A stretch of DNA of 27,378 nt, taken from assembly GCA_035249825.1 (NCBI GenBank), contig DATFFX010000182.1, positions 1 through 27,378 on the forward strand, in the 5' to 3' direction. The DNA is from Gemmatimonadales bacterium (GTDB lineage Bacteria > Gemmatimonadota > Gemmatimonadetes > Gemmatimonadales > GWC2-71-9). Each line of letters opens with the position of its first letter. Positions within the stretch are counted from its first letter, which is position 1. The notes below the pieces were generated by a model, which ran no database searches, was not told the origin of the DNA, and saw only the letters and a program-made list of their open reading frames with translations. Made by a program: the position numbers and the translations under genes. Of the stretch, positions 1-15,074 are shown in pieces.

Positions 1-333
1 CAGCTTGATGCCGATCATGCCGGCATCGAGGCAGCGCCGAAGCTCTGCTTCCGCATGGGAGCGGAAGTTCGGGTTGACCACGCAATAACCGCGAATGCGG
101 GTGGGGTGCGCACGTTGTAGTGCCAGGAGGCAGTCATTCCCGTACTGAATATCATCGGGCGATGGAAAGTAGATCGGAGAAGTCAGCCCCCAACTGCCCA
201 GGATCGAAGCGATATGAACCGTGATCCCGACACGTTCGCCCGCCCGCAGGCGGCTGGCATTGCGTTCCTGCCAGTCGCCGCGCGGCGAACGGTCATGGAG
301 AAAGTGGGCGTGTACGTCGACGAGGGCCCCTAT
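1..333 (-). CDS. Amidohydrolase family protein (Amidohydro_2-like), N-terminal part; runs off the window start
   Basis: Not in the ORF track; translated by hand. The minus frame reads (I)GALVDVHAHFLHDRS...RIRGYCVVNPNF...ELRRCLDAGMIGIKL. It has the DxHxH metal motif and the 'VNP...ELRRC...GIKL' pattern typical of this family. There is no in-frame ATG/GTG/TTG between the upstream TGA and the motif, so ATA at 333-331 is the candidate start. Confidence 0.8.
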   Translation of the reverse strand, partial: MGALVDVHAHFLHDRSPRGDWQERNASRLRAGERVGITVHIASILGSWGLTSPIYFPSPDDIQYGNDCLLALQRAHPTRIRGYCVVNPNFRSHAEAELRRCLDAGMIGIKL

Positions 334-506
334 GCCTCCTCCTCGGCCACTTCCTCGTCCTCAACCGCGCTACTCCCGGTGATCGCCTCGTCTGCCGACT
401 CGACGACCAGCGTCAAATCGGTTTCCTGCGAATCCTCATCCTCTACCGAGCCATCCTCATCATCCACGTCGTCGAGATCATCGACGGTTGGTTTGCGACT
501 GGACAT
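330..506 (-). CDS. Small, highly acidic hypothetical protein (58 aa)
   Basis: A strong Shine-Dalgarno (CAGGAGGT) lies 4 nt before the ATG at 506. 24 of 58 residues are D/E. It fills the gap between two co-oriented genes. Confidence 0.65.
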   Translation of the reverse strand: MSSRKPTVDDLDDVDDEDGSVEDEDSQETDLTLVVESADEAITGSSAVEDEEVAEEEA

Positions 507-565
507 ACCCACCTCCTGAAAAAGCACGCTGCAGTGTTAGCCTCGTCGTCAGGCTGCATTTCAAT

Positions 566-1732
566 CTAGGCAGATTTCGGCACCCCGGAGAGTGCTTCAG
601 CGAGGACCTGGAGAGTGGCATCGATCACGGCTGGATCGTGCGCCAGAGAGACGAAGTTGTAGGCTGATCGTTTGAACAGGAGGCCCCCACGGGCACACTC
701 GGCTGTCACCGCGCGCGACACCTCCTCGCCCGCATACTGGAGAAAGCACATCTCAGGGATCCCGCCGACTCCAACGATCAGCTCCGGATGTTCGTGATGC
801 AGTGTGGCGAGACCTTGCAGCAGGCGACTGCCAACCCTGCCGAGGTGCTGGGGTACGTGCCGGGCTGCCATGACGTCGAGGGTTGCCCGTGCCGCGGCGA
901 GCGAGACGAACTCGGTAGCCAGCGTGGAGGAGATCCAGGTACGGGCCGCTCCCGCCATCACCCACCGGCTACCACCGACCACTGCCAGGGGAAAGCCGTT
1001 TGCAATGGCTTTTCCCAGGACGACGAGGTCAGGGCGAATGTGATAGCGCTCGCAGGCTCCGCCGACTGCCAGCCGGCAGACCGTCTTGATCTCATCCACG
1101 ACGAGCAGCGCACCGAGACGCTCTGTCTCCACTCGCATCGTTGTGAGCCAGTCTGGATCAGGCTCTCGGAGAATGACCGGCTCGAACACCACAGCCGCCA
1201 GGTTATCACCTGCTGCCCTGATGAGCCTGCGAGTTGCTTCCACATCGTTGAAGGGAAGCTCACCGTACAGCTCCCGGGTGGACTGCGGAACTCCCTCCGC
1301 ACTCTGGGACCAGTCGTGCCAGCCGTGATAGCCGCAGCCGAGGATTCGCTCCCGTCCGGTGGCAACGCGGGCCAGGCGGACCGCGGCGGCCATTCCTTCA
1401 GCGCCGGTCTTCAGGAACCGAAGCTGTTCGACCCAAGGCATGAGCCCGCTGATCTGCTGGGCCAGCTCTTCCTCTATCACGGGAGGAAGGGGGCCGACGA
1501 CACCATGCTCGGCTGCCGCGACGACCGCCCGGGTGATTTCAGGGTGGCCATAGCCGAGTGCGACCGAGCCGAGCCCCATGATGTAGTCGATGAACTCGCC
1601 CTCGTTCTCGTCCCAGACGCGGCAGCCGGAGGATCGCACCATGCGCGCCGGCAAGCCGGGATGGCGCGCACCAAAGAGGCTTTCCGGGCGCTTGCTACCG
1701 GTAGAGGTGAAGCCCGCGACATGCTCGGTCAA
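566..1732 (-). CDS. Class-III PLP aminotransferase (glutamate-1-semialdehyde aminomutase-like)
   Basis: Motifs: DYIMGLGSVALGY, FLKTGAEG, GYHGWHDW, VVFEP, DEIKT and GKAIANGFPL (PLP lysine). TTG start. Confidence 0.88.
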   Translation of the reverse strand: MTEHVAGFTSTGSKRPESLFGARHPGLPARMVRSSGCRVWDENEGEFIDYIMGLGSVALGYGHPEITRAVVAAAEHGVVGPLPPVIEEELAQQISGLMPWVEQLRFLKTGAEGMAAAVRLARVATGRERILGCGYHGWHDWSQSAEGVPQSTRELYGELPFNDVEATRRLIRAAGDNLAAVVFEPVILREPDPDWLTTMRVETERLGALLVVDEIKTVCRLAVGGACERYHIRPDLVVLGKAIANGFPLAVVGGSRWVMAGAARTWISSTLATEFVSLAAARATLDVMAARHVPQHLGRVGSRLLQGLATLHHEHPELIVGVGGIPEMCFLQYAGEEVSRAVTAECARGGLLFKRSAYNFVSLAHDPAVIDATLQVLAEALSGVPKSA

Positions 1733-1760
1733 CGGTCCCCGCCCGAAAAGAAGGATTCAG

Positions 1761-4499
1761 TCACAGCAGTTCCAGCTTTCCGAATCTGCCGGGATCCTGC
1801 CGGTCACCGCGAAGCCACACCCAGCCGCCGCCGCCACTCCATACCAGCTGTCCCGCACGCCGGAGCCGGGCGGGTTGCATCTCATTCACCAGCAGGTCGA
1901 AGCCGATCTCGTCTCCCACGCGTACATTGCTCCAGCCCGGAAGCCTGAGCGAGCAGGTAATCCGGTATCCCCGATCGGTGGGAGTCCAACTTCCCTCAAC
2001 CATGTCACCTGCACTCGGAGATCCCGAGGTGTTGCGCGCGATCAGGCCTCCACCTTCAGTCGAGGGGACGATTAAAAAGCCGTTCACTGTTTCTTCCAAA
2101 GGCAGTTTGACATACACCTGAATTCCATCGGAGTGAATCTCGTCCGGCTCATTGTCGAGACGCAGCGGCTCAGCGCTTGGGTCGCGGGCAATCACGTCGG
2201 GCTTCACCACCTCCACAGCCAGGTACAGCGCGTCGTCGCTCCAGTTGACCAGGGCGCTGGCGGAGAGCTCGTCGGGACCTGGGTAGGGCTCCTCACTTCG
2301 CCGGTACTGGTCTTCATGATCGAGCTGAAGGTCTTCCTCGACCTCGAAACCGCTGAGCGTCCCGTCGAGCGCCGGCGGTTCCAGGATATGGTGGGCAGCC
2401 CCGACGGCTTGCAGTGGACGATCCTGCCGGACCAGGGGCTCGAATGGCGGTGGGTTCCGTCGGATGCCGGCGAGTCTCACTGTAGCCCCGGGGGTCTGTA
2501 CCTCCCATCCCTCGGCGGTGGACGTGTGTCGCTCCACTCCGGCTGCGGTTTCTATCTCGATAGCGGCTCCACTGAGCCGAACCGTGCGCACCTGACACTC
2601 ACCGCTGGTGGACTCCAGGACAGAGACCAACCGCAGATTTTTCCCCTGCGCCCGCACGATGTAGAATGTGGCTGGCTTGGTCGTCCCGGGCGCTCCCGGA
2701 CCCACGGCGCGGAGCAGGTCTGCCGCGGAATCGAGGTAGAGGCTCAGCGTCGCGCTGGTTCCCTGGGAGCGAAGCACCAGCGGTACCTGCCGATCGTTCA
2801 CGCGACGTTCAACCTGCCGTACAAACTCGTCGGACAGGTCGGCCGGCGCCCAGTTGCCGGCTGGCTCCACTTGCACCTCTCCGCTCAGATGCCAGGGCAG
2901 CTCGACTATGCGGTCCTCGGTTCCACTCAGCTCCAGGACGTCGAGCAGATAGCTGGGACCGGCCACCAACACCCGCACCAGCGGACCAAATCGTCCTCGA
3001 GCCCACGCCCACTCACCACTGGATCCGAAGTTGTCGCAGACAGCGTCACCGAACGGTTGAGAAACACCGTCGAGCCGGGGAGCGTTGTGAGCCAGCGTTG
3101 AGCGGTACCAGAACAGATCTCGAGCCACATAGGAACCGGTTCCGAAGTCAGGCAACCAGTACTCCCCGTCGGCATGCAGGATCAGGTTCAGCCGGTCCGG
3201 GTGGCCGTGCCCGCCACCCGAGCTGCCGCACTCGAGGCTGGCGTACCGGCTTCCACGGCGAAACAATGCCAGGCCCTGGCCTTCCACGAAGGTATTCCCC
3301 GGAGCCCATGGTGGAGTGTCGGTCGGCAACGAGGGCACCATCTCGAGCAATGCCCACCAGGACAAATCAGCACGGGTGCGCTCAGCGGCGGGATCCGGCT
3401 CACCCGCCTCGTGCAGGTAGGAGTCGAATGTCTGCGCCTTCGGCGCCGGAGCCCGGTACAGCTCTCGTAACCAGCTCCACAGGTCCTCGTGCCCGTCTGA
3501 TGCGGCGGAGACTCTTGCGAGCCCAATCTCCCAGAGCTCGAGATACATCGGCTGCGCCAGGGAGACGCCGAACCGGGAGTCCTTTCGAGCGGGAAAGGTG
3601 TAGTCCGGGAGCGCGGTAACTGCAGGAGCGCGAAGCGCGTGCACCAGCTTGTCCGCCAGCCGGGGGTCAGCGAGCAGGTCAACACCGGCGAGTCGGGCCC
3701 ACCACATGGCCAGCAACTGACCCCTGAGTGCGAACAGGTGATAGTTGTCTCCCTCGTACCACATCCCATCCTCACCGAACCCCTGCAGGAGATGAGTTAC
3801 GATCCCGGTATTCCCCTCGATGACCCGGGAGGCGAGTTCCTCGTCTTCGAACCACACCGCGATGCTCGCCAACGCAGCGTTGTGCCAGGTCTGCCGGTTC
3901 GAGAGCCCTTCGTCGTACTCACCGATAATGTTCGCCGCCTCGTCCGCGACCGTAGCGATCACTCTGGCGGTGGCATCCTCCAGCAAACCGCTCTCGCGAA
4001 GCAGCATGGCAGCCGCGAGGTAGTTGCCGATCCAGACGGATTCGAGATACGTGGAGAAGAAGAGATGGCTGGGACCCAGAACGTTGTCGCGGTTAGGGTA
4101 GTCGGAATAGCCGCGATACGCCTGCAGCAGATTGTTCGCCCCCCTGGCGGCATCGTCTCGCCCTGAAAACGCCGCCACCGCAGCAAGGTGAGCTGCGCGC
4201 TCGGCGAGCCAGAGATGCTGATAGTGCGCCCAGGCCCGATCGTGCCGTTCTCCAGTGAACTGTTTCCGACAGCTGGGGCAGCGGTGGAGATGGGGACTCC
4301 AGGGGTCGAACTCCAATCGGGCACCGTCATCGGGACATACGCCGCCGTCGGCCGTCAGCAGTGCCTTCAGCGGCGACACCGGCGGCATGCGCCGGAGCAC
4401 CGGTTCCGCCCGTTCTTCCAGTCGAGCCAGCAGCCGGGCCAGCTGAGGCGCGGCCTGGATATCGTTGCGACGCAGGTCCAGCTCTTCTGCCGTCAGCAC
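1761..4499 (-). CDS. Heparinase II/III-like polysaccharide lyase with N-terminal Cys cluster and C-terminal CBM9/DOMON-like domain
   Basis: Motifs NRQTWHN, GMWYEGDNYH, GHGHPDRL, PDFGTGSY and WYRSTLAHN resemble oligo-alginate/heparinase II/III lyases. The C-terminal WSDDALYLAVEV...DGIQVYV...GFDLLVNE is CBM9-like. The GTG start overlaps the end of the kinase gene. No signal peptide is evident. Confidence 0.8.
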   Translation of the reverse strand: MLTAEELDLRRNDIQAAPQLARLLARLEERAEPVLRRMPPVSPLKALLTADGGVCPDDGARLEFDPWSPHLHRCPSCRKQFTGERHDRAWAHYQHLWLAERAAHLAAVAAFSGRDDAARGANNLLQAYRGYSDYPNRDNVLGPSHLFFSTYLESVWIGNYLAAAMLLRESGLLEDATARVIATVADEAANIIGEYDEGLSNRQTWHNAALASIAVWFEDEELASRVIEGNTGIVTHLLQGFGEDGMWYEGDNYHLFALRGQLLAMWWARLAGVDLLADPRLADKLVHALRAPAVTALPDYTFPARKDSRFGVSLAQPMYLELWEIGLARVSAASDGHEDLWSWLRELYRAPAPKAQTFDSYLHEAGEPDPAAERTRADLSWWALLEMVPSLPTDTPPWAPGNTFVEGQGLALFRRGSRYASLECGSSGGGHGHPDRLNLILHADGEYWLPDFGTGSYVARDLFWYRSTLAHNAPRLDGVSQPFGDAVCDNFGSSGEWAWARGRFGPLVRVLVAGPSYLLDVLELSGTEDRIVELPWHLSGEVQVEPAGNWAPADLSDEFVRQVERRVNDRQVPLVLRSQGTSATLSLYLDSAADLLRAVGPGAPGTTKPATFYIVRAQGKNLRLVSVLESTSGECQVRTVRLSGAAIEIETAAGVERHTSTAEGWEVQTPGATVRLAGIRRNPPPFEPLVRQDRPLQAVGAAHHILEPPALDGTLSGFEVEEDLQLDHEDQYRRSEEPYPGPDELSASALVNWSDDALYLAVEVVKPDVIARDPSAEPLRLDNEPDEIHSDGIQVYVKLPLEETVNGFLIVPSTEGGGLIARNTSGSPSAGDMVEGSWTPTDRGYRITCSLRLPGWSNVRVGDEIGFDLLVNEMQPARLRRAGQLVWSGGGGWVWLRGDRQDPGRFGKLELL

Positions 4500-5515
4500 G
4501 GCCGCACGCCATACATCGCCCAGCGCACGGGTAGAAGCGTGGCACCACTGCCTTGTGCCGCTTCTATGACTGCACTGGGATCATCTGGAGCAAGAAAGAA
4601 CATGCACCCTCCTGCCCCGGATCCTGCCGCCTTGCCGCCCAGTGCTCCGGCGGCAAGGGCAGCTCGCTCCAATCGGGCCATGTTTTCCGTGCGCATACCT
4701 GGATCCAGGGCCTGCTGGTGAGCCCAGTTATCGCTCAGCAGCCGTCCGATCAGCGCAACGTCGGCGGACGCGAGTGCGGCATCCATGGACTCAGCCACAG
4801 CGCGCAGGCCGTACAGGGCACGAACTACCCTGGGCTCCCGGTTCTCATATGCCAGCATCACGCGATCGATGGTTGCACCAGAAAAATGGGACGCACTGGT
4901 GTAGCACAACACCGTCCTTCGACCGAGCTCATCAGCGAAATGCGGATCCAGATCGAGGCGCCGCACTTCGGCGTCGGGATCTCTGAAGTCGAGCCGGAGG
5001 AAACCGCCGTGAGACGACGTGAACTGATCCTGCCGTCCACCTGAAATACCGGCTTCCACCGCTTCCAGGTGGCAGGCACGTTCCGCGATATCTACCGGGT
5101 CAGGACTCTCGCCGCGAGCAGCCGACAACGCGGCGACCAGGGCCACATCCAAGGCACCGGAGCTTCCGAGGCCCGACCCCGGCGGCGCATCGGACCGGGT
5201 GGTGAGGGTACACGCTCCCACCGGCAGCATACGCAGTGCGGCCTTGAGAAGTTCGAGACGCCCATCGCTGACCAGTCCGGTCGAATCACGTATCTGCAGC
5301 TCGTCCCGGAGGTCTTCGGATATCAGCTGGATGCCACTCCCGCCCAGGCGGACCTCGGCGCGGGCGAAGAGCCGGATCGCAGCGGTGACGACCACCCCGC
5401 CTTCCTGGGCCGAAAACGGCGGAACATCGGTCCACCCTCCGGCCAGGTCGAGACGCACCGGGGCGGCGGCCCTGAAGGCGGGGCGCGGGTCTTCAGTAGG
5501 CTGCACTCCACTCAT
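4493..5515 (-). CDS. GHMP-family sugar kinase (L-fucokinase/HddA-like)
   Basis: Motifs: APVRLDLAGGWTDVPP, PPGSGLGSSG (GHMP ATP loop), GGRQDQ, KAAGSGAGG. The start at 5515 forms an ATGA overlap with the stop of the binding-protein gene. Confidence 0.9.
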   Translation of the reverse strand: MSGVQPTEDPRPAFRAAAPVRLDLAGGWTDVPPFSAQEGGVVVTAAIRLFARAEVRLGGSGIQLISEDLRDELQIRDSTGLVSDGRLELLKAALRMLPVGACTLTTRSDAPPGSGLGSSGALDVALVAALSAARGESPDPVDIAERACHLEAVEAGISGGRQDQFTSSHGGFLRLDFRDPDAEVRRLDLDPHFADELGRRTVLCYTSASHFSGATIDRVMLAYENREPRVVRALYGLRAVAESMDAALASADVALIGRLLSDNWAHQQALDPGMRTENMARLERAALAAGALGGKAAGSGAGGCMFFLAPDDPSAVIEAAQGSGATLLPVRWAMYGVRPC

Positions 5516-6936
5516 CGCGCGATCCACCAGTCGTGCACCGTCGGGAGCTCTCCCCGTAGATCCATGGTAACGCCGCGCACCCGACGATTCATTCCCTGAA
5601 GCCCGCGGGAGTGATAGAGAAAGGCCACCGGAGTCGAGTCGGCGAACAGGCGCTGAGCGGCGAGCGGATCCGCCGGCGCATCGAATCCGGCCAACGCCGC
5701 AAGCGGCTCCAGGTAGCCGAGACCCGGATCTCCAGCAATTCCCAGCACTGCCGCCTCGAAGTCGGGTGTCTGCCCGTAGACCCGCCCAAGGAAGGCGGAC
5801 ACTTCGAGCTGGCGGATTGTCACATCGAAGCCACGCTCGCGGAGCCGCGCTTGAAGCATCTGCTCCAGTGCCGCCTCGCCGCTCCCTACCGTGAGCAGTT
5901 CAAAGGGTATCGGCGTGCGAACGGGCTCCTCCCTGTACTCCACCGGCTTCACCGGAAGGTAGCCCGGCGCTGTCGGCGGCACCGGCCCCAGTGCCGGTGT
6001 TCCGTATCCATAGATGTATCCATCAACCAGCTCCTGGCGATCGATGGCATCGCTCACCCGACGGCGAGTCTCGAGGCGATTGAACGGAGGGCGCCGGGCG
6101 TTGAACACGATGCCCTCGGTCCAGAGCAGCGAGTAGCTCAGCACGGCGAGATTGGGATCACGGCGCACGAATTCGGCATGAGCGGGCTGGATCCCGGCGA
6201 AATCCAACTCGCCCGACGTGAGCGCGGCGAGCTTCGTGGTTGGTTCATCCACCACGACCACTATGAACCGCTTGAGGCGGGGCGGCCCGCCCAGCACGGC
6301 AGGGAAATGGGCATTGGCTTCGAACACCCATCGCCGGTTCGGCTCGTGTGACACGAACCGGAACGGGCCGTTACCGACCGGAGCGCTGTTCCAGCTTGCC
6401 TGGCGCAAGTGTTCGAGCGCTACCCCCTCGAGAAGATGAGCCGGCAAGATGGCGAGATCCGTGAGCACATCGGGAAAGCGGCTTTGCCGCCGCTTGAATG
6501 CGAGGAGTGCAGTTGAATCGTCGAGGGCCACAACACTGTCGAGCGCCGCGAGCTCGTTCCCCCGGGGATACCCGGTTGCCGGATTGCGGGCTGCGTTCAG
6601 GGTCCAGGCAACGTCTCGCGCCGTGGTAGGCCGTCCGTCATGCCAACGGATTTCGGTGTGGAGTTGGAGGATGAGCCTTCGACGATCGGAGGACCACTTC
6701 CACGAGCGAGCAAGATACGGCTGCGGCGTCAGCGCACTGTCATACTGTGCCAGGGTGGTGAGCAGCACATAGCGCTGTACCTGACGGGCCAGTGGATGCG
6801 CGGTAAGCAGCGGATTGATGCTCTGGAGATCCGCGCCCGAAGCAAAGAGCACGCTCTCGCCACGGCGATTTGCGTTGGAGCCGCAGGCGGAGATCAACGC
6901 TGACAGGAGCAGGATGCGGTTTGGCATTCGAAGCAC
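5512..6936 (-). CDS. ABC transporter substrate-binding lipoprotein, family 5 (OppA/DppA/NikA-like)
   Basis: Lipobox ISAC, then PYLARSW, IRWHDGRPTTARDVAWT, PVGNGPFRF and ALTSGELD. The start is GTG at 6936 or ATG at 6927, rather than 6963. Confidence 0.9.
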   Translation of the reverse strand: MLRMPNRILLLSALISACGSNANRRGESVLFASGADLQSINPLLTAHPLARQVQRYVLLTTLAQYDSALTPQPYLARSWKWSSDRRRLILQLHTEIRWHDGRPTTARDVAWTLNAARNPATGYPRGNELAALDSVVALDDSTALLAFKRRQSRFPDVLTDLAILPAHLLEGVALEHLRQASWNSAPVGNGPFRFVSHEPNRRWVFEANAHFPAVLGGPPRLKRFIVVVVDEPTTKLAALTSGELDFAGIQPAHAEFVRRDPNLAVLSYSLLWTEGIVFNARRPPFNRLETRRRVSDAIDRQELVDGYIYGYGTPALGPVPPTAPGYLPVKPVEYREEPVRTPIPFELLTVGSGEAALEQMLQARLRERGFDVTIRQLEVSAFLGRVYGQTPDFEAAVLGIAGDPGLGYLEPLAALAGFDAPADPLAAQRLFADSTPVAFLYHSRGLQGMNRRVRGVTMDLRGELPTVHDWWIAR

Positions 6937-7014
6937 GGCGAAGTTTATCTCTGCCAGGCGCAAGCTGCAGGATCAACCACCATTGATCGGCCCCTGACCG
7001 AGATACATTCTACC
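6937..7014. promoter_or_regulatory. Divergent promoter region with mirrored -10-like elements and a 6-6-6 palindrome
   Basis: Plus strand: GAGATACATT-CTACC-ATG(7015). Minus strand: GAGATAAACT-TCGCC-GTG(6936). Inverted repeat GATCAA-N6-TTGATC at 6971-6988. Confidence 0.5.
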
Positions 7015-7998
7015 ATGCTCCGAACGGTGTTTGTGCGGTCGATAGCCGGCGCTGCGGTCGTGATCGGCGTCGTGACTCTGATGTTTTTTCTCATCCGGAT
7101 GGCGCCGGGAGATCCTGCTCTGCTGCTGGTAGGGCCCACCGCCACCCAGGAACAGCTCACTGCACAGCGGAGAGATCTCGGTCTCGACCGCCCGGTGCCC
7201 GAACAATACGCCACCTGGCTGAGCCGCTTCGTTCGCGGCGATTGGGGCACCAGCATCGCATCCGGCCGGCCGGTCCGTGCGATGATCTCCGCCGCCTGGC
7301 CTGCGACCGTCAGTCTCGTCGGCCTCTCGCTGATTCTGAGTTATCTCCTCGGCATTCTGGTTGGTGCCATCCAGGCAACGAGAGGCGGGCGGCTCGATAC
7401 CGCCCTCTCGGTGGTCAGTGTCACGCTCTTCGCCGTGCCGGGGTACTGGCTGGGGCTGATGCTGGTGATGGTTTTCACCTACTGGGCCCGCGCCCTGCCG
7501 GCGTTTGGGGCAGCGGGTCTGGACGCCGACTTCCTCACCGGGTGGGATCAGATAGCCGATCGTCTCCGCCACCTCGCTCTGCCGCTGGCAACCCTCACGC
7601 TGATCGGCGTCGGTGGAACGGCGCGGTATGTTCGCGGCTCGATGCTGGATGTTCGGAACGCCCCTCATGTGGCGATCGCCCGAGCCAAGGGCTTGTCTTC
7701 CCTCCAGGTCAGCGTACGGCACGTACTCCGCAACGCATTGATTCCGGTGCTCACATTGCTCGGCCTCTCGCTGCCCGCGCTGTTTTCCGGGGCGGTGTTC
7801 ATCGAAGCGATCTTCGCCTGGCCCGGGGTCGGACGCATCATGGTCGAAGCCGTAGGGGCCCGGGATTACCCGGTGATCATGGCCGCGACGGCGGTGAGCG
7901 CCATGCTGGTCGTGCTTGGAAATCTGCTCGCGGATGCACTGACCGCATGGGCCGACCCGCGGGTACGGATCGCGGAGCCCTCGGAAGGAGCGGTGTAG
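7015..7998 (+). CDS. ABC transporter permease (OppB/DppB-like)
   Basis: Motifs APGDPA, GLDRPVPEQY, GDWGTSI, AWPATVSL, the EAA-loop region ARAKGLS...RHVLRNAL, FAWPGVG and RDYPVI; multiple TM segments. Confidence 0.93.
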   Translation: MLRTVFVRSIAGAAVVIGVVTLMFFLIRMAPGDPALLLVGPTATQEQLTAQRRDLGLDRPVPEQYATWLSRFVRGDWGTSIASGRPVRAMISAAWPATVSLVGLSLILSYLLGILVGAIQATRGGRLDTALSVVSVTLFAVPGYWLGLMLVMVFTYWARALPAFGAAGLDADFLTGWDQIADRLRHLALPLATLTLIGVGGTARYVRGSMLDVRNAPHVAIARAKGLSSLQVSVRHVLRNALIPVLTLLGLSLPALFSGAVFIEAIFAWPGVGRIMVEAVGARDYPVIMAATAVSAMLVVLGNLLADALTAWADPRVRIAEPSEGAV

Positions 7999-8853
7999 AT
8001 GGGTGTTGGCACTCTCCTTCAGGACACACGAGCCCGGTTTGGGCTGGCGGTGCTCGCGATGGCCGCGATATTCGCGGTGATTGCTCCCCTGGTGGCCGTA
8101 GATCCTTCGGTACAGCGCGATATCGTGGCGACCCGCTTTCTCGCACCGTTCACCACTGACCTGCACGGCACCTTCCATCTGCTCGGCACCGACCGGTTCG
8201 GACGCGACGTATGGGCCCGCCTGGTATTCGGCGCCAGGGTGTCGCTGAGTGTGGGAGTGCTCGCAGTGCTGCTCTCGGTCGTAATCGGGCTGGCCATCGG
8301 GGCGGCGGCTGGATTCTGGCAAGGCCGTGTCGGCGTCCTACTCCTGGGGCTGACTGATTTTGCGCTGGCACTACCTCGAGTGGTGCTCCTGTTGCTCCTG
8401 GCTTCACTCTGGCAGCCGAGCGCGGCACTCGTCATCATAGTCCTGGGACTGACCGGCTGGATGACTATCGCGCGCCTGGTCCACAGTGAAGTCCGGGCAC
8501 TGGCCGCCCGGCCATTCGTCGAGAGCGCGGTAGCGCTGGGAGTGAAGGGCCCCCGAGTCCTGGTGCGACATATCCTGCCCAATGCCCTGACCCCGGTTAT
8601 CGTAGCAGCGGCGCTCGGCGTGGGGAACGCTATCATGCTCGAGGCAGGCCTCTCGTTTCTTGGCCTCGGTGTGCAGCCACCCACGCCTTCATGGGGCAAC
8701 CTGATTGCCTCGGGACGGGATACACTCGTCAACGCGCCCTGGGTGGCTACCGCACCAGGGGTCGCGTTGGTGCTGGTGGTCGTAGCGGCCACGTTGCTGG
8801 GGGATGCGGTACGAGACCGGCTGGATCCGGCGGGGAAGCGGGTAAGCGGGTAA
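7999..8853 (+). CDS. ABC transporter permease (OppC/DppC-like)
   Basis: Motifs HLLGTDRFGRDVWARLVFGARVSL, ESAVALG...RHILPN, EAGLSFLGLGVQPPTPSWG and DAVRDRLDP. Starts immediately after the oppB-like stop. Confidence 0.93.
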   Translation: MGVGTLLQDTRARFGLAVLAMAAIFAVIAPLVAVDPSVQRDIVATRFLAPFTTDLHGTFHLLGTDRFGRDVWARLVFGARVSLSVGVLAVLLSVVIGLAIGAAAGFWQGRVGVLLLGLTDFALALPRVVLLLLLASLWQPSAALVIIVLGLTGWMTIARLVHSEVRALAARPFVESAVALGVKGPRVLVRHILPNALTPVIVAAALGVGNAIMLEAGLSFLGLGVQPPTPSWGNLIASGRDTLVNAPWVATAPGVALVLVVVAATLLGDAVRDRLDPAGKRVSG

Positions 8854-8886
8854 GTGGGGAAGCGGGGAAGCGGGGAAGCGGGAAGT
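8830..8886 (+). repeat. Tandem G-rich octamer array, consensus GCGGG(G/T)AA, about 7 copies
   Basis: GCGGGGAA GCGGGTAA GCGGGTAA GTGGGGAA GCGGGGAA GCGGGGAA GCGGGAA GT, read directly from the sequence. Confidence 0.9.
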
Positions 8887-9108: not shown

Positions 9109-9150
9109 CTTACCACTTCCCCGCTTCCCCGCGTTCCCGCTTACTTCCCC
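9109..9150 (-). repeat. Inverted copy of the G-rich octamer array
   Basis: The minus strand reads GGGGAA GTAA GCGGGAAC GCGGGGAA GCGGGGAA GTGGTAA G. Confidence 0.85.
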
Positions 9151-9641
9151 GTCCACCGGGCTGACCCCAGCACCTCATCGATTTTTTTCTCCAGCACCGT
9201 AAGGGCCCCGGGCACTCCGCGGCACCCGTAGTCGTGCACTATTCTCTTGCTGCGTCCTCGGAATGTTGCCGAGCTGATAGCGGAAGGAGAGTCGGTGGAA
9301 TAGCGGCGACAGGTGGGTTCGGGCGGAGCGTACCGGTCGGCGAAGGTGAAGAAGCCGGCCCGCTCCAGCTCGAGAAGTAGTTCGTCTACCTGCTTGGGCG
9401 GAATCTGACCCGTAGCGGTTCCCATATGCCGCACACCGGACTTGCCCTGGTACGTCACCAGGCCCGCCGGCGATACGGACACCCGATAGACCGGACATCC
9501 TCCGAAGCATGGTGTGCGCTCCAGGCTCACAGCCGGTCCGGAAGCAGCGGCGACCCGATCAGCGGCGTCCTGGGGTGCTGCCGACCCACGTGGCATGCAG
9601 GCGGTGAGTCCGACCAGCAGAATCGGGATGAAGCACCTCAT
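9141..9641 (-). CDS. DUF6438-like lipoprotein
   Basis: Lipobox LTAC, the motif SLERTPCFGGCPVYRV and further Cys (TC...DSP, HDYGC). TGATG overlap with the upstream peptidase gene. Confidence 0.75.
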   Translation of the reverse strand: MRCFIPILLVGLTACMPRGSAAPQDAADRVAAASGPAVSLERTPCFGGCPVYRVSVSPAGLVTYQGKSGVRHMGTATGQIPPKQVDELLLELERAGFFTFADRYAPPEPTCRRYSTDSPSAISSATFRGRSKRIVHDYGCRGVPGALTVLEKKIDEVLGSARWTGK

Positions 9642-11839
9642 CAGCGCGCTACCGGCACCCGTCGGACGCTGCTTCGGATGCCGTCCGAGAGCACGACATC
9701 CACTTCACGCGTCTGACTCACCAGCTCGGCGTATCCACCCCGGGCGAAGGACAGTACCTCACCGGTCTGGACATCGCGCACCATGGCCATGGGATGAGTG
9801 CGTGCGTCCCACTGCACTCCTACCCGGCCGGCTGAGACGAGCCGGAGTTGGGGTACATCCCTGACCGCACCGCCGGACAGCGACTGCGTGCGGGTTCGCG
9901 CGACCTGGCCGATGGGGCCGGCGAGCCGAAGGCTTGTTAAGCGCGCAGCCTGAGCCGAGGCCACCGGCACTGCGAACACGAAGCTCTTGTGATCTCCAGG
10001 GGCATCCGCGACCTCACGCGGGGAGAAGGAGAAGCTGAAGAGCCTGCCTCCACCTTCAGTCGTCGCCTCGAGGGAATACGGGCCCGGGCGAGACGGCAGA
10101 GTGGGCCGGGTGTTCACATGAAATGATGGCTCCAGCACCATCACGCCGTTTCGAATGTGACCCCATACCAGCAGACAGGGCTGCACCGCTCCGAGCCCGG
10201 CACCATCCGCGGACACGATGGGCGGCGGTGAAATGAGATAGTTCATGACCGCTTTGTAGGTGTAGTCACCGATCCACTTGGGATCGCAATAGCCCATGAT
10301 GTCGCTGGTACTGGCGGGCTTCAGGCTCTGCTCCGCAACATCAACTCCATATACTCCGATTCTTCCATCTGCATGCGGATATCCGTTGTCCACCCCGCTC
10401 GGGCCTCCACAAGGGGCATGGTTTCGCCCCCAGTTGTGCCCCAATTCGTGCGCCGCCACAGCGGCGCCACTCGGCAAGTAGTCCCAGCCCAGAGCGCTGC
10501 GCTCACTGGCGCCGTTACTCACGTATGCCACCCCGGCCACCCCGCTGGTGTAGGACACCTTGGCCACGCCGTAGTAGTAGCGTGAGCTTCCCTCGGCCAC
10601 CCGAAGCGCATCGATTTCCTCCAGAATAGTTCCCCAGGCACTGTTGCCGTTGTCGTCCTGGAGGGTGTCCGTGGTGGTGGTCGTGTAGGGCGCATGTACC
10701 GCCGTGTTATAGACGGCGATAGGGTGCATCTTCCGGGCGAGTGCCACGTACTCATCTCTGTTGCCGATCGTGACGTTCCCAACGTCTCCGCGCAGCGCGT
10801 GTTGTTTCTGAATGACGGGCACGAAGGTCAGGTTGAGGGTCGGCACCGTTTGAACAACCGGCGCGGGGGGCGTCGCCAGGTTGTCGGTCTCGTCGCTTTC
10901 GGGCACCGTCCCTGTTGGGTCAATCTCCGCTTCGATTCGGAACCCGGGTTGAATCAGTGTCCCCGACATCGGTGTGTTCCAGGAACGGCTGAGTGAACTC
11001 TCATCAACCGCCGTCGGGACTGAAAGGCCAGGCGGCGGGATCAACACCTCGGAAGCCAATACACTCGAGCTGTTGTATACCCGGACCCGTACGGCCGGGG
11101 CCGCGGTATTGGTGCGAGTGGCCACGGCGAATACCCGCAGGTAACCGTTTCGGTCCTGCACCAGCGGAACCCCGTTCGCAAAGGTCTGAGCGCTTTGCGT
11201 CACATAGAGCCCGGCTATACGCAAATTGAGCTCACCGCTGCTGGGCGGGGCGTAGCTTACGGTGGCACTGTCAGTTCCCGACCCAGATACGGTGACACTT
11301 TGAGTGGCGGACGTGGCCGTGTGTGGAGTGCCGCCGGTGGCGACGACGTCCTGGGCTGAGATGGTATAGGTGCCTGGGGTGAGGCTGAACAGTGTCTCGG
11401 ATGCGCCAATGCTGCGGCTATAGCTCCCCGGACCGGTGATCGTCACCGCCGCGTCACTGCGCGTGCCGAGTCCGGTGATGGTTACGCTGAGGTTACCGGT
11501 ACCAGCCGAGTAGAGGACCGACAGGCTGGCCGTGGAGCCACTCACTGACACGTCCTGCGTCTCTGGCGTACCGATGTAGATGGAGGAGCCTACGGTCACC
11601 GGGTTGGCCGTCAGGGTGTAGGTGCCCGGAGCAAGGTCGCTGAGAACCTGGGCGCCCGTGACCCCCTGGCTGTAGCCGCCGGGGCCGGTGACAACCAGAT
11701 CCGCTGAGGTGCCAGAGGGAAGCCCCGAGATCGATATGGAGAGATTACCGGCGCTCACGCCACTGGGCCCTTCGCTGCACGCGAGGGCAAGTCCGAACAG
11801 GGTGAGAGCAAAAAGCTGCTTCCGCGAGATCAGCGGCAC
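9641..11839 (-). CDS. Secreted or lipoprotein zinc metallopeptidase (metzincin, M66-like) with two Ig-like repeats
   Basis: Zinc motif HELGHNWGRNHAPCG (10418-10450) followed by DIMGYC (Met-turn). Lipobox ALAC. Two roughly 84-aa S/T/G-rich repeats. The start is probably GTG at 11839 (AGGA upstream); the ORF track starts at 11875. Confidence 0.8.
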   Translation of the reverse strand: MPLISRKQLFALTLFGLALACSEGPSGVSAGNLSISISGLPSGTSADLVVTGPGGYSQGVTGAQVLSDLAPGTYTLTANPVTVGSSIYIGTPETQDVSVSGSTASLSVLYSAGTGNLSVTITGLGTRSDAAVTITGPGSYSRSIGASETLFSLTPGTYTISAQDVVATGGTPHTATSATQSVTVSGSGTDSATVSYAPPSSGELNLRIAGLYVTQSAQTFANGVPLVQDRNGYLRVFAVATRTNTAAPAVRVRVYNSSSVLASEVLIPPPGLSVPTAVDESSLSRSWNTPMSGTLIQPGFRIEAEIDPTGTVPESDETDNLATPPAPVVQTVPTLNLTFVPVIQKQHALRGDVGNVTIGNRDEYVALARKMHPIAVYNTAVHAPYTTTTTDTLQDDNGNSAWGTILEEIDALRVAEGSSRYYYGVAKVSYTSGVAGVAYVSNGASERSALGWDYLPSGAAVAAHELGHNWGRNHAPCGGPSGVDNGYPHADGRIGVYGVDVAEQSLKPASTSDIMGYCDPKWIGDYTYKAVMNYLISPPPIVSADGAGLGAVQPCLLVWGHIRNGVMVLEPSFHVNTRPTLPSRPGPYSLEATTEGGGRLFSFSFSPREVADAPGDHKSFVFAVPVASAQAARLTSLRLAGPIGQVARTRTQSLSGGAVRDVPQLRLVSAGRVGVQWDARTHPMAMVRDVQTGEVLSFARGGYAELVSQTREVDVVLSDGIRSSVRRVPVAR

Positions 11840-12024
11840 GATGCGGTTCCTAGTCTGGGCCCTTGGGTCTGGCATTCTGCACGCCGATGGGTGAACGCAG
11901 CTCGGCTGGAGACCTGCCGATCAATCTATCTGGAGTAAGTCTCGGCAGAGGTACCCATAGGAGCGCTGAACGGGACCTTTTTTCGCTGGTCCGGCAAAGG
12001 TTGCGCCACAGGGCAACTCTCTCC

Positions 12025-12169: not shown

Positions 12170-12964
12170 ATGCGCGTGCGAACCCGCGGAACGCTGAGTG
12201 CCGCCCTCGGCTGCATGCTCCTCCTGGGAGCAGCGGGCTGCGGTGATGATGATGACAATGACGACGGCGGATTGAATCCGCCGGCGACCGAAGGGCTCCC
12301 GAGTCATGACCAGTTAGTGCAGGCGCTCGAAGCCGCCCGTGCCACGCCGAATGGCGGCTTCAACCTGGAAATGTGGGCCACCGTGGTGGACCGGTCGGGT
12401 ATCGTCGTGGCCGTAGCCTTTACCGGAGCTCAGGAAGGCGATCAGTGGCCGGGTAGTCGTGTGATCTCGGCTCAGAAGGCCAACACCGCAAATGCCTTCA
12501 GCCTGCCCTCGCTGGCGCTCTCAACTGCCAATCTGTTCACCGCCACCCAGCCGGGGGGCAGTCTTTTCGGGCTGCAGGAGAGCAACCCGGTGAATCCCGA
12601 CGTGGCGTACGGCGGGAATGTGGCCGACTATGGCACTACGAGGGACTTCATGGTGGGCAAGCGCATCGGCGGGATCAACGTGTTCGGTGGTGGGCTGCCC
12701 CTCTACACGGCCGACGGGACTCTGGTAGGGGCAGTGGGTGTGAGCGGCGACAGCTCGTGCGCCGACCACAACATCGCGTGGAAAGTGCGCGATGGGCTCG
12801 CGCTCGACAACATACCTGGCGGCGTGAGCAGCACGGCAGACGACAATATCGTGTATGACATCTCGGGCGGCACGAGTGCCAGCGGGTGGGGCCATCCAGA
12901 GTGTTCGGCCGAGGCGACGGCCATCGGTAATGGCCTGCCAACCACGAATCCGGTCGGGCCCTGA
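12170..12964 (+). CDS. GlcG/HbpS family heme-binding lipoprotein
   Basis: Lipobox AAGC; motifs ATVVDRSG, AQKANTA and FGGGLPLY...VGAVGVSG. SD AGAGGT. Confidence 0.82.
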   Translation: MRVRTRGTLSAALGCMLLLGAAGCGDDDDNDDGGLNPPATEGLPSHDQLVQALEAARATPNGGFNLEMWATVVDRSGIVVAVAFTGAQEGDQWPGSRVISAQKANTANAFSLPSLALSTANLFTATQPGGSLFGLQESNPVNPDVAYGGNVADYGTTRDFMVGKRIGGINVFGGGLPLYTADGTLVGAVGVSGDSSCADHNIAWKVRDGLALDNIPGGVSSTADDNIVYDISGGTSASGWGHPECSAEATAIGNGLPTTNPVGP

Positions 12965-13919: not shown

Positions 13920-15074
13920 TTATGGCCGCAAGGCGCGGTGCGCTCGCAGGATCCGGAGAACCTCGGCTATCGGGAGCGCCTCCACGGTACCGCCCCGTGA
14001 TGTCGCCGTGGTGGCTCTGAACAACGAATTGTAGATGGCCTCCTCGGTAGCTTCCACCACAGCCTGGAAAAGGCTGGACATCTCCTCGTTCGCCAGCTCG
14101 GTACCGGCATGGCGGATCTCGCGAGCTTGCCGCCTCACCTCGGGGCTGGTGGAGAATGCAATGACGTAGTCGCCCGATCCGTTGGAAGCCACTGAACCGG
14201 TTTTCCCGACGCCGAGCATGGCGCGACTCGCCAGGCGCCGGAGGTTTCGGTCGGACAGCGGAGCATCGGTGGCCACGACAATCATGATGGAGCCCCGGGC
14301 ACCCTGAGATTCAGTCTTTGCCCTCACTCCGTTCCGGCCCAGAGCGCGGCCGACGGGCACCCCGAGGATCTGGAGGTCTCCTCCGAAATTCGATTGAACC
14401 AGCACCCCGACGGTCCAGCCACTGTCCGCTCTGGTGAGCCGCGAGGAGGTCCCGATGCCACCCTTCCAGCCAAAGGCGATAGTGCCCGCGCCCGCGCCGA
14501 CACTTCCCTCGACGACAGGGCCTGATGCAGCGCGGGTCAACGCATGGCGCACATCGCCCGGCGAGAGAGGACGGTTTCGGATGGCGTTCAGCACATAGCC
14601 ATCGTTGGTCTCGCCTACCACGGGATTGATGGAGCGCACCGCTTCCATACCAGACAACTCCAGGAGGTACGCGGCCATGGCATCGGCCGCTCTCCAGACA
14701 CACAGCGTGCAGGTGAGCAGAATCGGAGTCTCCAGCTCCCCAAGCTCGGTGACCTGGGTGACACCGATCAGCTTGCCGAACCCGTTTCCCACGTGGATTG
14801 CCGCGGGAACTCGGTCGAAGAAGAGATTGCCCGGGTGTGGGAGTATCGCCGTGATGCCGGTGCGGATCGAGTCGCCCAGTGTCACGGTGATCTGTCCAAT
14901 GCGGACACCCGCCACGTCGGTGATCGCATTGTGAGTTCCAGGAAGGAGCAGCCCCGGAGCTATTCCGAGGTCACGAGCTCGTGGCCTTTCCTGCGCTTGC
15001 AGCAGGTTTACCCACAGCAGCGCGAGCAGCATGGCATGGCGTAGCATCGGCGGCCGCCTCGAAGACCATGTCAT
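13920..15074 (-). CDS. DmpA/P1 family (S58) Ntn-type aminopeptidase, probably exported
   Basis: NAITDVAGVRIG, GNGFGKLIG, VGETNDG, EGSVGAGAG, VQSNFGG, autoprocessing site G|SIMIVVATDAPL and NGSGD. The N-terminus resembles a signal peptide. ATGA overlap with NUDIX. Confidence 0.9.
   Translation of the reverse strand: MTWSSRRPPMLRHAMLLALLWVNLLQAQERPRARDLGIAPGLLLPGTHNAITDVAGVRIGQITVTLGDSIRTGITAILPHPGNLFFDRVPAAIHVGNGFGKLIGVTQVTELGELETPILLTCTLCVWRAADAMAAYLLELSGMEAVRSINPVVGETNDGYVLNAIRNRPLSPGDVRHALTRAASGPVVEGSVGAGAGTIAFGWKGGIGTSSRLTRADSGWTVGVLVQSNFGGDLQILGVPVGRALGRNGVRAKTESQGARGSIMIVVATDAPLSDRNLRRLASRAMLGVGKTGSVASNGSGDYVIAFSTSPEVRRQAREIRHAGTELANEEMSSLFQAVVEATEEAIYNSLFRATTATSRGGTVEALPIAEVLRILRAHRALRP

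Follow-up and report, generated by a model that had tools for sequence, protein, structure and literature searches.

What does a bacterium of the order Gemmatimonadales import and break down with the gene cluster that occupies the first 8,853 nucleotides of contig DATFFX010000182.1 (assembly GCA_035249825.1)? The stretch of DNA that we analysed, hereafter the window, is the whole of this contig (C182, 27,378 nucleotides), which belongs to a fragmented metagenome-assembled genome (2.79 Mb in 473 contigs, 73.5% complete); its position 1 is a contig end. The cluster encodes a putative importer, a sugar kinase, a lyase-like protein, an aminotransferase and an amidohydrolase. In a first reading made from the letters alone (the sequence-only reading), it had been taken for a catabolic or salvage route for an N-acylated amino-uronic oligosaccharide or glycopeptide. 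We propose that the cluster serves the import and the cytoplasmic breakdown of an acidic alpha-mannosylated glycoside, followed by a non-canonical downstream route, and we give this proposal a probability of roughly 0.55. It keeps the uronate element of the sequence-only reading, for which we found support; the amino element is plausible, and the words "N-acylated" and "glycopeptide" are left without support.

The first question is whether these genes belong together. We searched with tblastn, using the proteins of the window, and compared 88 loci: 8 from the genomes of relatives and the best 80 from a genome collection, all of these 80 being from Gemmatimonadales (the positions of the genes in the relatives' loci are taken from Pfam and tblastn coordinates). 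We call amido1 the Amidohydro_2 protein whose gene starts in the window, and amido2 a second, degenerate Amidohydro_2 protein which is encoded downstream in relatives. The order that recurs in the 88 loci, in three families, is the following: a gene for a GH38 alpha-mannosidase homologue, the permease genes permC and permB and, divergent from them, the genes for the binding protein, the kinase, the lyase-like protein, the aminotransferase, amido1 and amido2. As the same order is found in 88 loci, the arrangement is far above chance expectation. The GH38 homologue is a constant neighbour of the cluster in relatives. This operon is truncated in the window by the contig end: what we see is probably the promoter-proximal part of a Gemmatimonadales catabolic operon. 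In the window's own family, and in only this one of the three, amido2 is followed by genes for DapA-like, DHOD-like and NSAR/OSBS-like enzymes; in genome G000 these three genes are on contig C258 and pieces of the GH38 gene are on contigs C147 and C363. The genes beyond amido2 in two families, which by their size could have been SusC/SusD, proved to encode Alternative complex III and are unrelated.

We then counted the genomes which carry the cluster, on one and the same sample of 201 Gemmatimonadota genomes for the lyase-like protein and for amido1 (three unpublished genomes, G087, G206 and G183, are included in the tallies, and the picture is unchanged without them). The lyase-like protein is present in 102 genomes and amido1 in 103, and the two lists differ only at genome G114. 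The positive genomes all belong to one order, where they are patchily distributed within families (75 of 97 in family f1, 23-24 of 38 in f2 and 3 of 3 in f3), and neither protein was found in any of the 62 genomes from nine other Gemmatimonadota families. Five near-complete genomes from the same family which lack the lyase-like protein were also searched for orthologues of amido1 and of the kinase, and none was found. These joint losses must be read with the caveat that one deletion can remove linked genes and that related genomes are not independent. The neighbourhood check, by synteny in the 88 loci and by co-presence and co-absence across the 201 genomes, nevertheless agrees with the earlier suggestion of a co-conserved import-and-process cluster. 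It had also been said that the combination of genes matches no named pathway; the curated models gave none, and the literature, searched for this set of enzymes, yielded nothing, nor anything relevant on a lyase or mannosidase of Gemmatimonadetes or on the genome context of NSAR. One locus labelled Acidimicrobiia (L070, CAXMUQ010000056.1) holds the full cluster, with 45-71% identity to the Gemmatimonadales proteins; this label is probably a binning error, or possibly reflects a transfer.

The second question is that of the substrate. The lyase-like protein has neither a signal peptide nor an N-terminal hydrophobic segment, and it is made of an N-terminal Cys/His ribbon (C55, H72, C74 and C77), an alpha/alpha toroid, a beta-sandwich and a C-terminal CBM9-like domain. 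Its AlphaFold2 model (pLDDT 85.3) displays the (alpha/alpha)6 toroid and the antiparallel beta-sandwich of family PL17, and its ten best Foldseek matches are all PL17 chains (7bjt, 4ojz and 4nei; E ~1e-22, target-normalised TM-score 0.68-0.71, 15% identity). Lyases of families PL40, PL12, PL39, PL15, PL35 and PL33 and a dermatan-sulfate epimerase match less well, and PL8 only weakly. In the PL17 enzyme Alg17c, the carboxylate is neutralised by N201 and H202, and the acid and the base of the reaction are Y258 and Y450, respectively (PMC4765187). The HMMER alignment places N201, R202, Y253 and Y457 of the lyase-like protein at these four positions, and H431, H433, D451 and H471 at H413, H415, D433 and H464 of Alg17c. 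Over 18 homologues, down to 25% identity, N201, R202, Y253, H431, H433, Y457 and H471 are invariant, as are C55 and C77 of the ribbon; C74 is nearly so and H72 is the consensus residue. The His/Asp/His triad formed by H433, D451 and H471 is conserved. Judging from the model and from this alignment, the machinery for beta-elimination on a uronate is intact. The link to uronate lyases drawn in the sequence-only reading is thus supported as far as the fold and the retained catalytic residues go (PMC4765187).

The lyase-like protein is not a PL17 member at the sequence level: it reaches 19.7 bits on the oligoalginate-lyase model NF042990, against a cut-off of 1400, and phmmer aligns it to 4nei over 64 residues only (E = 4e-5). 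Its specificity is probably different from that of alginate lyases, because an arginine replaces the specificity-determining His202; a mutation at the equivalent position in another PL17 enzyme moves specificity towards glucuronan (PMC4765187). R260 of Alg17c is aligned with a leucine. A search of a protein atlas returned matches limited to the query's own Gemmatimonadota clusters. Distant homologues keep the whole architecture, including a significant CBM9-like domain (up to 62 bits). One of them, on a Vibrio plasmid (23-26% identity), adjoins uxaC, a KdgM porin gene and an alginate lyase gene; another, in two species-level lineages of Clostridia, is next to glpA-like and glpK-like genes and less than 6 kb from a GH92 alpha-mannosidase gene. 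These clostridial loci link the lyase family to glycerol-type metabolism and to alpha-mannosides in another phylum. In four loci from Clostridia and metagenomes (L121:8904-18616, L120, L122 and L123), we noted that the homologue is followed by co-directional genes for GlpA-like, Pyr_redox, DUF1667, FGGY kinase and FAD-oxidase proteins, with GH92 upstream.

As for the GH38 neighbour, its best curated model is MngB (E = 4.9e-117), with 392 bits against an equivalog cut-off of 1138. The binding protein has a lipobox cysteine which is conserved in its orthologues, and among its solved relatives are binders of peptides, of nickel, of opines, of sialic acid and of mannosides. The ligands of these relatives are so varied that nothing links the protein to peptides, and the "glycopeptide" substrate proposed earlier finds no ground here. 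The two ATPase subunits of a complete Opp/Dpp-type importer of the ATP-binding cassette (ABC) class are encoded neither in the window locus nor in any of the 88 loci. Genome G004 (3 contigs, 92% complete) has two Opp-type sets of permeases and binding protein and only one OppD/F ATPase pair; this pair is part of the second opp operon, at a distance of 1.6 Mb (C1:688567-693586 versus C1:2306990-2309423). Because there is a single OppD/F pair for two permease sets in this genome, the ATPases are probably shared in trans with the permeases of the cluster.

The kinase scores above the cut-offs of both GHMP domains (PF00288, 49.5 bits; PF08544, 37 bits) and has the motif II PPGSGLGSS at residues 111-119. 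It is nearest to anomeric sugar kinases, namely the HddA/WcbL heptose kinases and fucokinase (solved relatives 3k85, 4usk and 4n3o), but it scores far below the equivalog of HddA, the D-glycero-D-manno-heptose 7-phosphate kinase, with 125.3 bits against a cut-off of 600. The clusters of one family lack the kinase, and the 99%-complete genome G033 of this family has no kinase homologue at all. The aminotransferase has 135.7 bits on PF00202 against a cut-off of 30.5, and its pyridoxal phosphate (PLP)-binding lysine is K241, in VVLGKAIANG. Its solved relatives are glutamate-1-semialdehyde (GSA) aminomutases and aminoglycoside C-6' aminotransferases. It is not HemL: the HemL models give it 184-201 bits against cut-offs of 398-637, and the true HemL (566 bits) is encoded on contig C205.

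The fragment of amido1 in the window is 84% identical to residues 2-109 of the orthologue of locus L012, which has 266 residues and 85.7 bits on PF04909. In the amido1 orthologues, D4 is invariant, and so are the residues expected of a metal-dependent Amidohydro_2 enzyme (the HxH of strand beta1, H6 and H8; H137 on beta5; H173 on beta6; D224 on beta8), which align to those of ACMSD-type chains; the window holds only the HxH part. The nearest solved relatives by profile are decarboxylases of the ACMSD, LigW and gamma-resorcylate types and the LigJ hydratase. The protein is thus closest to decarboxylases and to a hydratase and not to deacylases, and the "N-acylated" substrate of the sequence-only reading loses its basis. 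A binuclear centre with a carboxylated lysine was considered and rejected, since the profile aligns amido1 with the mononuclear ACMSD-type enzymes. Amido2 has DxN instead of HxH and has lost the Asp of strand beta8; its role is therefore probably that of a partner without catalytic activity.

On five haloarchaeal megaplasmids (L110:10001-11689, L111:10001-11677, L116, L117 and L118), a single fusion protein of ~560 residues combines amido1 and amido2. Because of this fusion, we take amido1 and amido2 for the two subunits of one Amidohydro_2 enzyme. A class-III aminotransferase gene is near the fusion in L110, where the protein is 35% identical to that of the window, and in L117; genes of an Opp-type ABC transporter are near it in L111 and L117. 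Genes for DegT aminotransferases, Gfo/Idh/MocA oxidoreductases, sulfatases and RidA also recur around the fusion, and a neutral-ceramidase-like gene is found twice. These haloarchaeal loci look like loci for the catabolism of sulfated amino sugars, and the fusion supports, from comparison of sequences, a two-subunit enzyme which would work with an aminotransferase in the catabolism of a sugar derivative.

Among the accessory genes found in one family, that of the enolase superfamily is assigned to the NSAR/OSBS subfamily with 223 bits (cut-off 200.65), and its best solved relatives are N-acylamino acid racemases. A housekeeping MenC was ruled out for this gene, no MenB having been found. For the DHOD-like protein, neither a plasmid homologue nor a solved relative was found.

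We can now describe how the cluster could work. The family-5 lipoprotein and the two Opp-type permeases would import a small acidic glycoside or oligosaccharide, and would probably be powered by the remote OppD/F pair. In the cytoplasm, the PL17-fold protein would cleave a bond at O4 of a uronic acid by beta-elimination, most likely in an exolytic way, and the MngB-like GH38 enzyme would take off alpha-mannose. The HddA-like kinase would act on a common sugar released by these reactions, probably at C1; this step would be dispensable, because the clusters of one family lack the gene and a 99%-complete genome lacks any copy. The aminotransferase and the two-subunit Amidohydro_2 enzyme, with amido1 catalytic and amido2 degenerate, would convert an unusual product. 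Their substrate would most plausibly be the 4-deoxy-5-keto-uronate made by the lyase, or else an amino-bearing fragment, and they would replace chemistry of the KduI type. The DapA-like, DHOD-like and NSAR/OSBS-like enzymes would extend the route in one family.

What is then the fate of the lyase product? In five near-complete genomes carrying the cluster, KduI (PF04962) was found in none and GH88 (PF07470) in one, the search having left aside GH105 and the short-chain dehydrogenases/reductases (SDR) of the KduD and DehR types. The canonical route for unsaturated uronates, with KduI and an unsaturated glucuronyl hydrolase in the genome, was thus encountered in none of the five. The absence of KduI fits a non-canonical route encoded by the operon. 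More specifically, the aminotransferase and the two-subunit Amidohydro_2 enzyme might constitute an undescribed fate of 4,5-unsaturated uronates, a speculation that we rate as unlikely and that has two versions. In one version, the metal enzyme would hydrate the enol-ether double bond and so stand in for the GH88/GH105 hydrolases and for KduI. In the other, the C1 aldehyde of 4-deoxy-5-keto-uronate would be transaminated into a 6-amino-2-keto acid, and this acid would cyclise to a dihydroxy-piperideine-2-carboxylate that the DapA-like, DHOD-like and NSAR-like enzymes could then process. If true, this second version would join the catabolism of uronates to imino-acid chemistry of the lysine type. 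In this speculation, a candidate for the natural substrate is an alpha-Man-(1->4)-GlcA glycoside, such as a fragment of glucuronomannan or a mannosyl-glucuronosyl-glycerol lipid head group.

Members of Gemmatimonadales abound in soil; few of them have been cultured, and their physiology is little known. The cluster is carried by about one in two of the genomes sampled in the phylum and by the majority of those in this order, and it probably marks a common source of carbon and nitrogen in soil. The cluster also gathers enzyme families that have not been studied: a PL17-fold lyase with Arg for His, a Cys/His ribbon and a CBM9-like tail, a two-subunit Amidohydro_2 enzyme which is fused in haloarchaea, and an aminotransferase resembling GSA aminomutases. 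Its chemistry could provide a new branch of uronate catabolism and a new family of polysaccharide lyases.

It is instructive to compare this scheme with known systems. The lyase-like protein shares with the PL17 exo-oligoalginate lyases (Alg17c of Saccharophagus degradans, 4nei/4ojz; Smlt2602) the two-domain fold, with a TM-score of 0.70, and the Asn neutraliser, the Tyr acid and the Tyr base, but it is only 15-16% identical to them, has Arg for His202, and carries the additional ribbon and CBM9-like domain. As in alginate catabolism, an oligo-uronate lyase step would take place in the cytoplasm, downstream of an importer; however, the cluster has no linked DEH reductase, KdgK or Eda, and in their place its linked genes are those of an aminotransferase and an Amidohydro_2 pair. 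In Bacillus sp. GL1, the side chains of xanthan are degraded outside the cell or in the periplasm by a PL8 xanthan lyase, a GH88 unsaturated glucuronyl hydrolase and a GH38 alpha-mannosidase. The likeness is that of an eliminative cut at a mannosyl-(1->4)-glucuronate bond combined with a GH38 alpha-mannosidase. The lyase of the window, though, is of another family (PL8 being a weak fold match), GH88 is in only one of the five cluster-positive genomes, and the xanthan system is not known to include an aminotransferase or an amidohydrolase. The oxidative uronate pathway of Agrobacterium uses Udh, the amidohydrolase-2 isomerase Gli, the enolase-superfamily cycloisomerase Gci and the DHDPS-family dehydratase KdgD; our cluster likewise gathers the Amidohydro_2, enolase and DHDPS superfamilies, beside a putative uronate-releasing enzyme. 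Its enolase-superfamily member, however, is of the NSAR/OSBS and not of the Gci type, the DHDPS superfamily is matched only very weakly, at 26.8 bits, a uronate dehydrogenase is absent, and the enolase, DHDPS and DHOD-like genes are in only one of the three families. Finally, the best model for the GH38 neighbour, the mannosylglycerate hydrolase MngB of E. coli, is a cytoplasmic alpha-mannosidase which acts on a mannoside with an acidic aglycone; but the GH38 score is far under the equivalog cut-off, and the cluster has no phosphotransferase system and no MngA or MngR genes.

Several observations weigh against a single route for an acidic mannoside, and they lead to other explanations. In related genomes, genes that are physically linked occur together to an extent that exaggerates their functional linkage, and the two halves of the cluster are separable, because other genes intervene in some lineages. 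In two families, the gene for a SpoU/TrmH-type RNA methylase stands between those of the lyase and of the aminotransferase (L018:9097-9843; L036:12921-13670); in one sublineage, a block of 8 kb containing genes for a histidine kinase, a sigma-54 response regulator and PqqB-like, PqqC and radical-SAM PqqE-like proteins stands between the aminotransferase and amido1 (L034, L036:15006-21194; L106, L107), the genes 3' of it continuing on the same strand. The haloarchaea carry the aminotransferase and the fused amidohydrolase with no lyase homologue on the same plasmid and, conversely, the lyase homologues of Vibrio and Clostridia have no aminotransferase or amidohydrolase nearby. One transcript could therefore carry two unrelated modules, the uptake, lyase, GH38 and kinase genes serving for an acidic mannoside and the aminotransferase and Amidohydro_2 genes, with the DapA-, DHOD- and NSAR-like ones, serving for a different nitrogenous acid. 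We find this rather unlikely, as the halves are gained and lost together in Gemmatimonadales (102 versus 103 of 201 genomes), as they stay co-directional despite the insertions, and as no alternative route (KduI) was found for the lyase product; it must be said that the SDR-type DEH/KduD reductases were outside the scope of this last search.

Another point against an acidic mannoside is that the binding protein and the permeases score best with models of the Opp, Nik and Gsi types and not with sugar-specific ones. The binding protein might then import a peptide, for the salvage of peptides or of cell-wall material such as a glycopeptide or a muropeptide with diaminopimelate, and an N-acyl amino acid or a piperideine-carboxylate intermediate would be processed by the aminotransferase, the amidohydrolase and the NSAR-, DapA- and DHOD-like enzymes. 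The assignment of the enolase-superfamily gene to the N-succinylamino-acid racemase/OSBS subfamily, the DapA-like and DHOD-like genes, and an M14 peptidase gene and an MR/MLE gene near the haloarchaeal fusion would agree with this. But the NSAR-, DapA- and DHOD-like genes are limited to one of three families, in place of a peptidase or an amidase the conserved core has GH38 and a protein with the fold of uronate lyases, whose catalytic residues are intact, and among solved structures amido1 comes nearest to decarboxylases and hydratases and not to peptidases: such a salvage is unlikely. The fold itself leaves room for epimerase chemistry, human dermatan-sulfate epimerase 1 being among the matches (6hzn, E = 5.8e-14). 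The 912-residue protein could act as a C5-epimerase of uronates or, without catalysis, as a scaffold that binds sugars, in a cluster that modifies its substrate and does not cleave it; the replacement of His202 by Arg, the leucine at R260 of Alg17c and the additional ribbon and CBM9-like domain would then find an explanation. We regard this as improbable, since the whole family keeps the acid/base tyrosines and the Asn unchanged and since ten PL17 lyase chains rank above all other fold matches; besides, the epimerases of the same fold proceed like the lyases through the first half of the mechanism, so that a uronate substrate would be implied anyway. Last, the best models of the kinase (HddA and fucokinase) and the resemblance of the aminotransferase to aminoglycoside C-6' aminotransferases might evoke the biosynthesis of an activated heptose or of an amino sugar. 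This is very improbable: the cluster has no nucleotidyltransferase, glycosyltransferase or exporter and is led by an importer, and the kinase is absent from the clusters of one family and from genome G033 entirely.

The features of the cluster in the window are collected in the table.

Table. Features of the truncated cluster at the beginning of the window (positions in nucleotides from the contig end).
Feature	Positions	Strand	Remarks
amido1, N-terminal 111 codons, Amidohydro_2	1..333	-	cut by contig end; HxH motif (VDVHAHF) present; probable start ATA at 333
hyper-acidic microprotein, 58 aa (MSSRKPTVDDLDDVDDEDG...)	330..506	-	Shine-Dalgarno AGGAGG at 512-517, 5 nt before ATG
class-III (GSA-aminomutase-like) PLP aminotransferase, 388 aa	566..1732	-	TTG start; PF00202
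cytoplasmic polysaccharide-lyase-like protein, 912 aa	1761..4499	-	Alginate_lyase and Hepar_II_III_C matches; PF07940 at 43.4 bits
GHMP sugar kinase (HddA/WcbL/fucokinase-like), 340 aa	4493..5515	-	PF00288, PF08544
family-5 solute-binding lipoprotein, 471 aa (MPNRILLLSALISAC...)	5512..6927	-	ATG start; PF00496 at 195 bits; lipobox LISAC
Opp/Nik-type ABC permease, B subunit (permB)	7015..7998	+	PF00528, PF19300; Opp2B/Opp4B/NikB models all below cut-offs
Opp/Nik-type ABC permease, C subunit (permC)	7999..8853	+	PF00528; no ATPase gene after permC

The six co-oriented genes on the minus strand, divergent from the two permease genes, are all present as had been described. Of the three overlaps then reported, that of the binding protein and kinase genes (ATGA, 5512-5515) and that of the kinase and lyase genes (GTGCTGA, 7 nt, 4493-4499) were found again. 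At the third, between the microprotein and the amidohydrolase, the ATAG at 330-333 is real, but it makes an overlap only on condition that a non-canonical ATA serves as the start of the amidohydrolase. There is no ATG, GTG or TTG ahead of the essential HxH motif of amido1, and the next canonical start, a GTG at 81, would lose this motif; the codon aligned to the GTG start of the L012 orthologue is this ATA (331-333), which overlaps the TAG stop of the microprotein. The explanation is either a start at the rare codon ATA or a mistake in the assembly. The lyase and aminotransferase genes are spaced by 28 nt. No terminator-like site was found at any junction; there are 7 weak ones, all intragenic, against 4.3 +/- 2.5 in shuffled sequences. 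Such close or overlapping junctions, free of terminators, speak for an operon.

The microprotein is conserved at its N-terminus (MSxRKxTIDDLDDIDDEDG...SDLTL), while its acidic tail varies; it has no cysteine and no Pfam family. Its N-terminal motif is found between the aminotransferase and amido1 in ~14 of ~70 related loci, most of the others having a gap of less than 50 nt without the motif. Besides the window, these loci include L012, L019, L020, L021, L023, L026, L030, L031, L044, L062 and L093.

In the divergent promoter region, we noticed a perfect palindrome, GATCAA-N6-TTGATC, at 6971-6988. It was considered as a conserved operator and rejected, being absent from all of the 65 other divergent intergenic regions examined. 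At the other end of the permease genes, tandem G-rich octamers resembling GCGGGGAA span the stop codon of permC (8832-8882, plus strand). Beyond it are genes for a DUF6438 protein, a 744-residue M12/reprolysin-like metallopeptidase and an HbpS-like protein (9141-11875, minus strand; 12170-12964, plus strand). These genes are beside permC only in the window's genus, where GH38 is displaced to the far end of the operon. Finally, two genes for peptidases of family S58 (DmpA-like) are on the same 27-kb contig, at 13920-15074 and 26496-27377, both on the minus strand.

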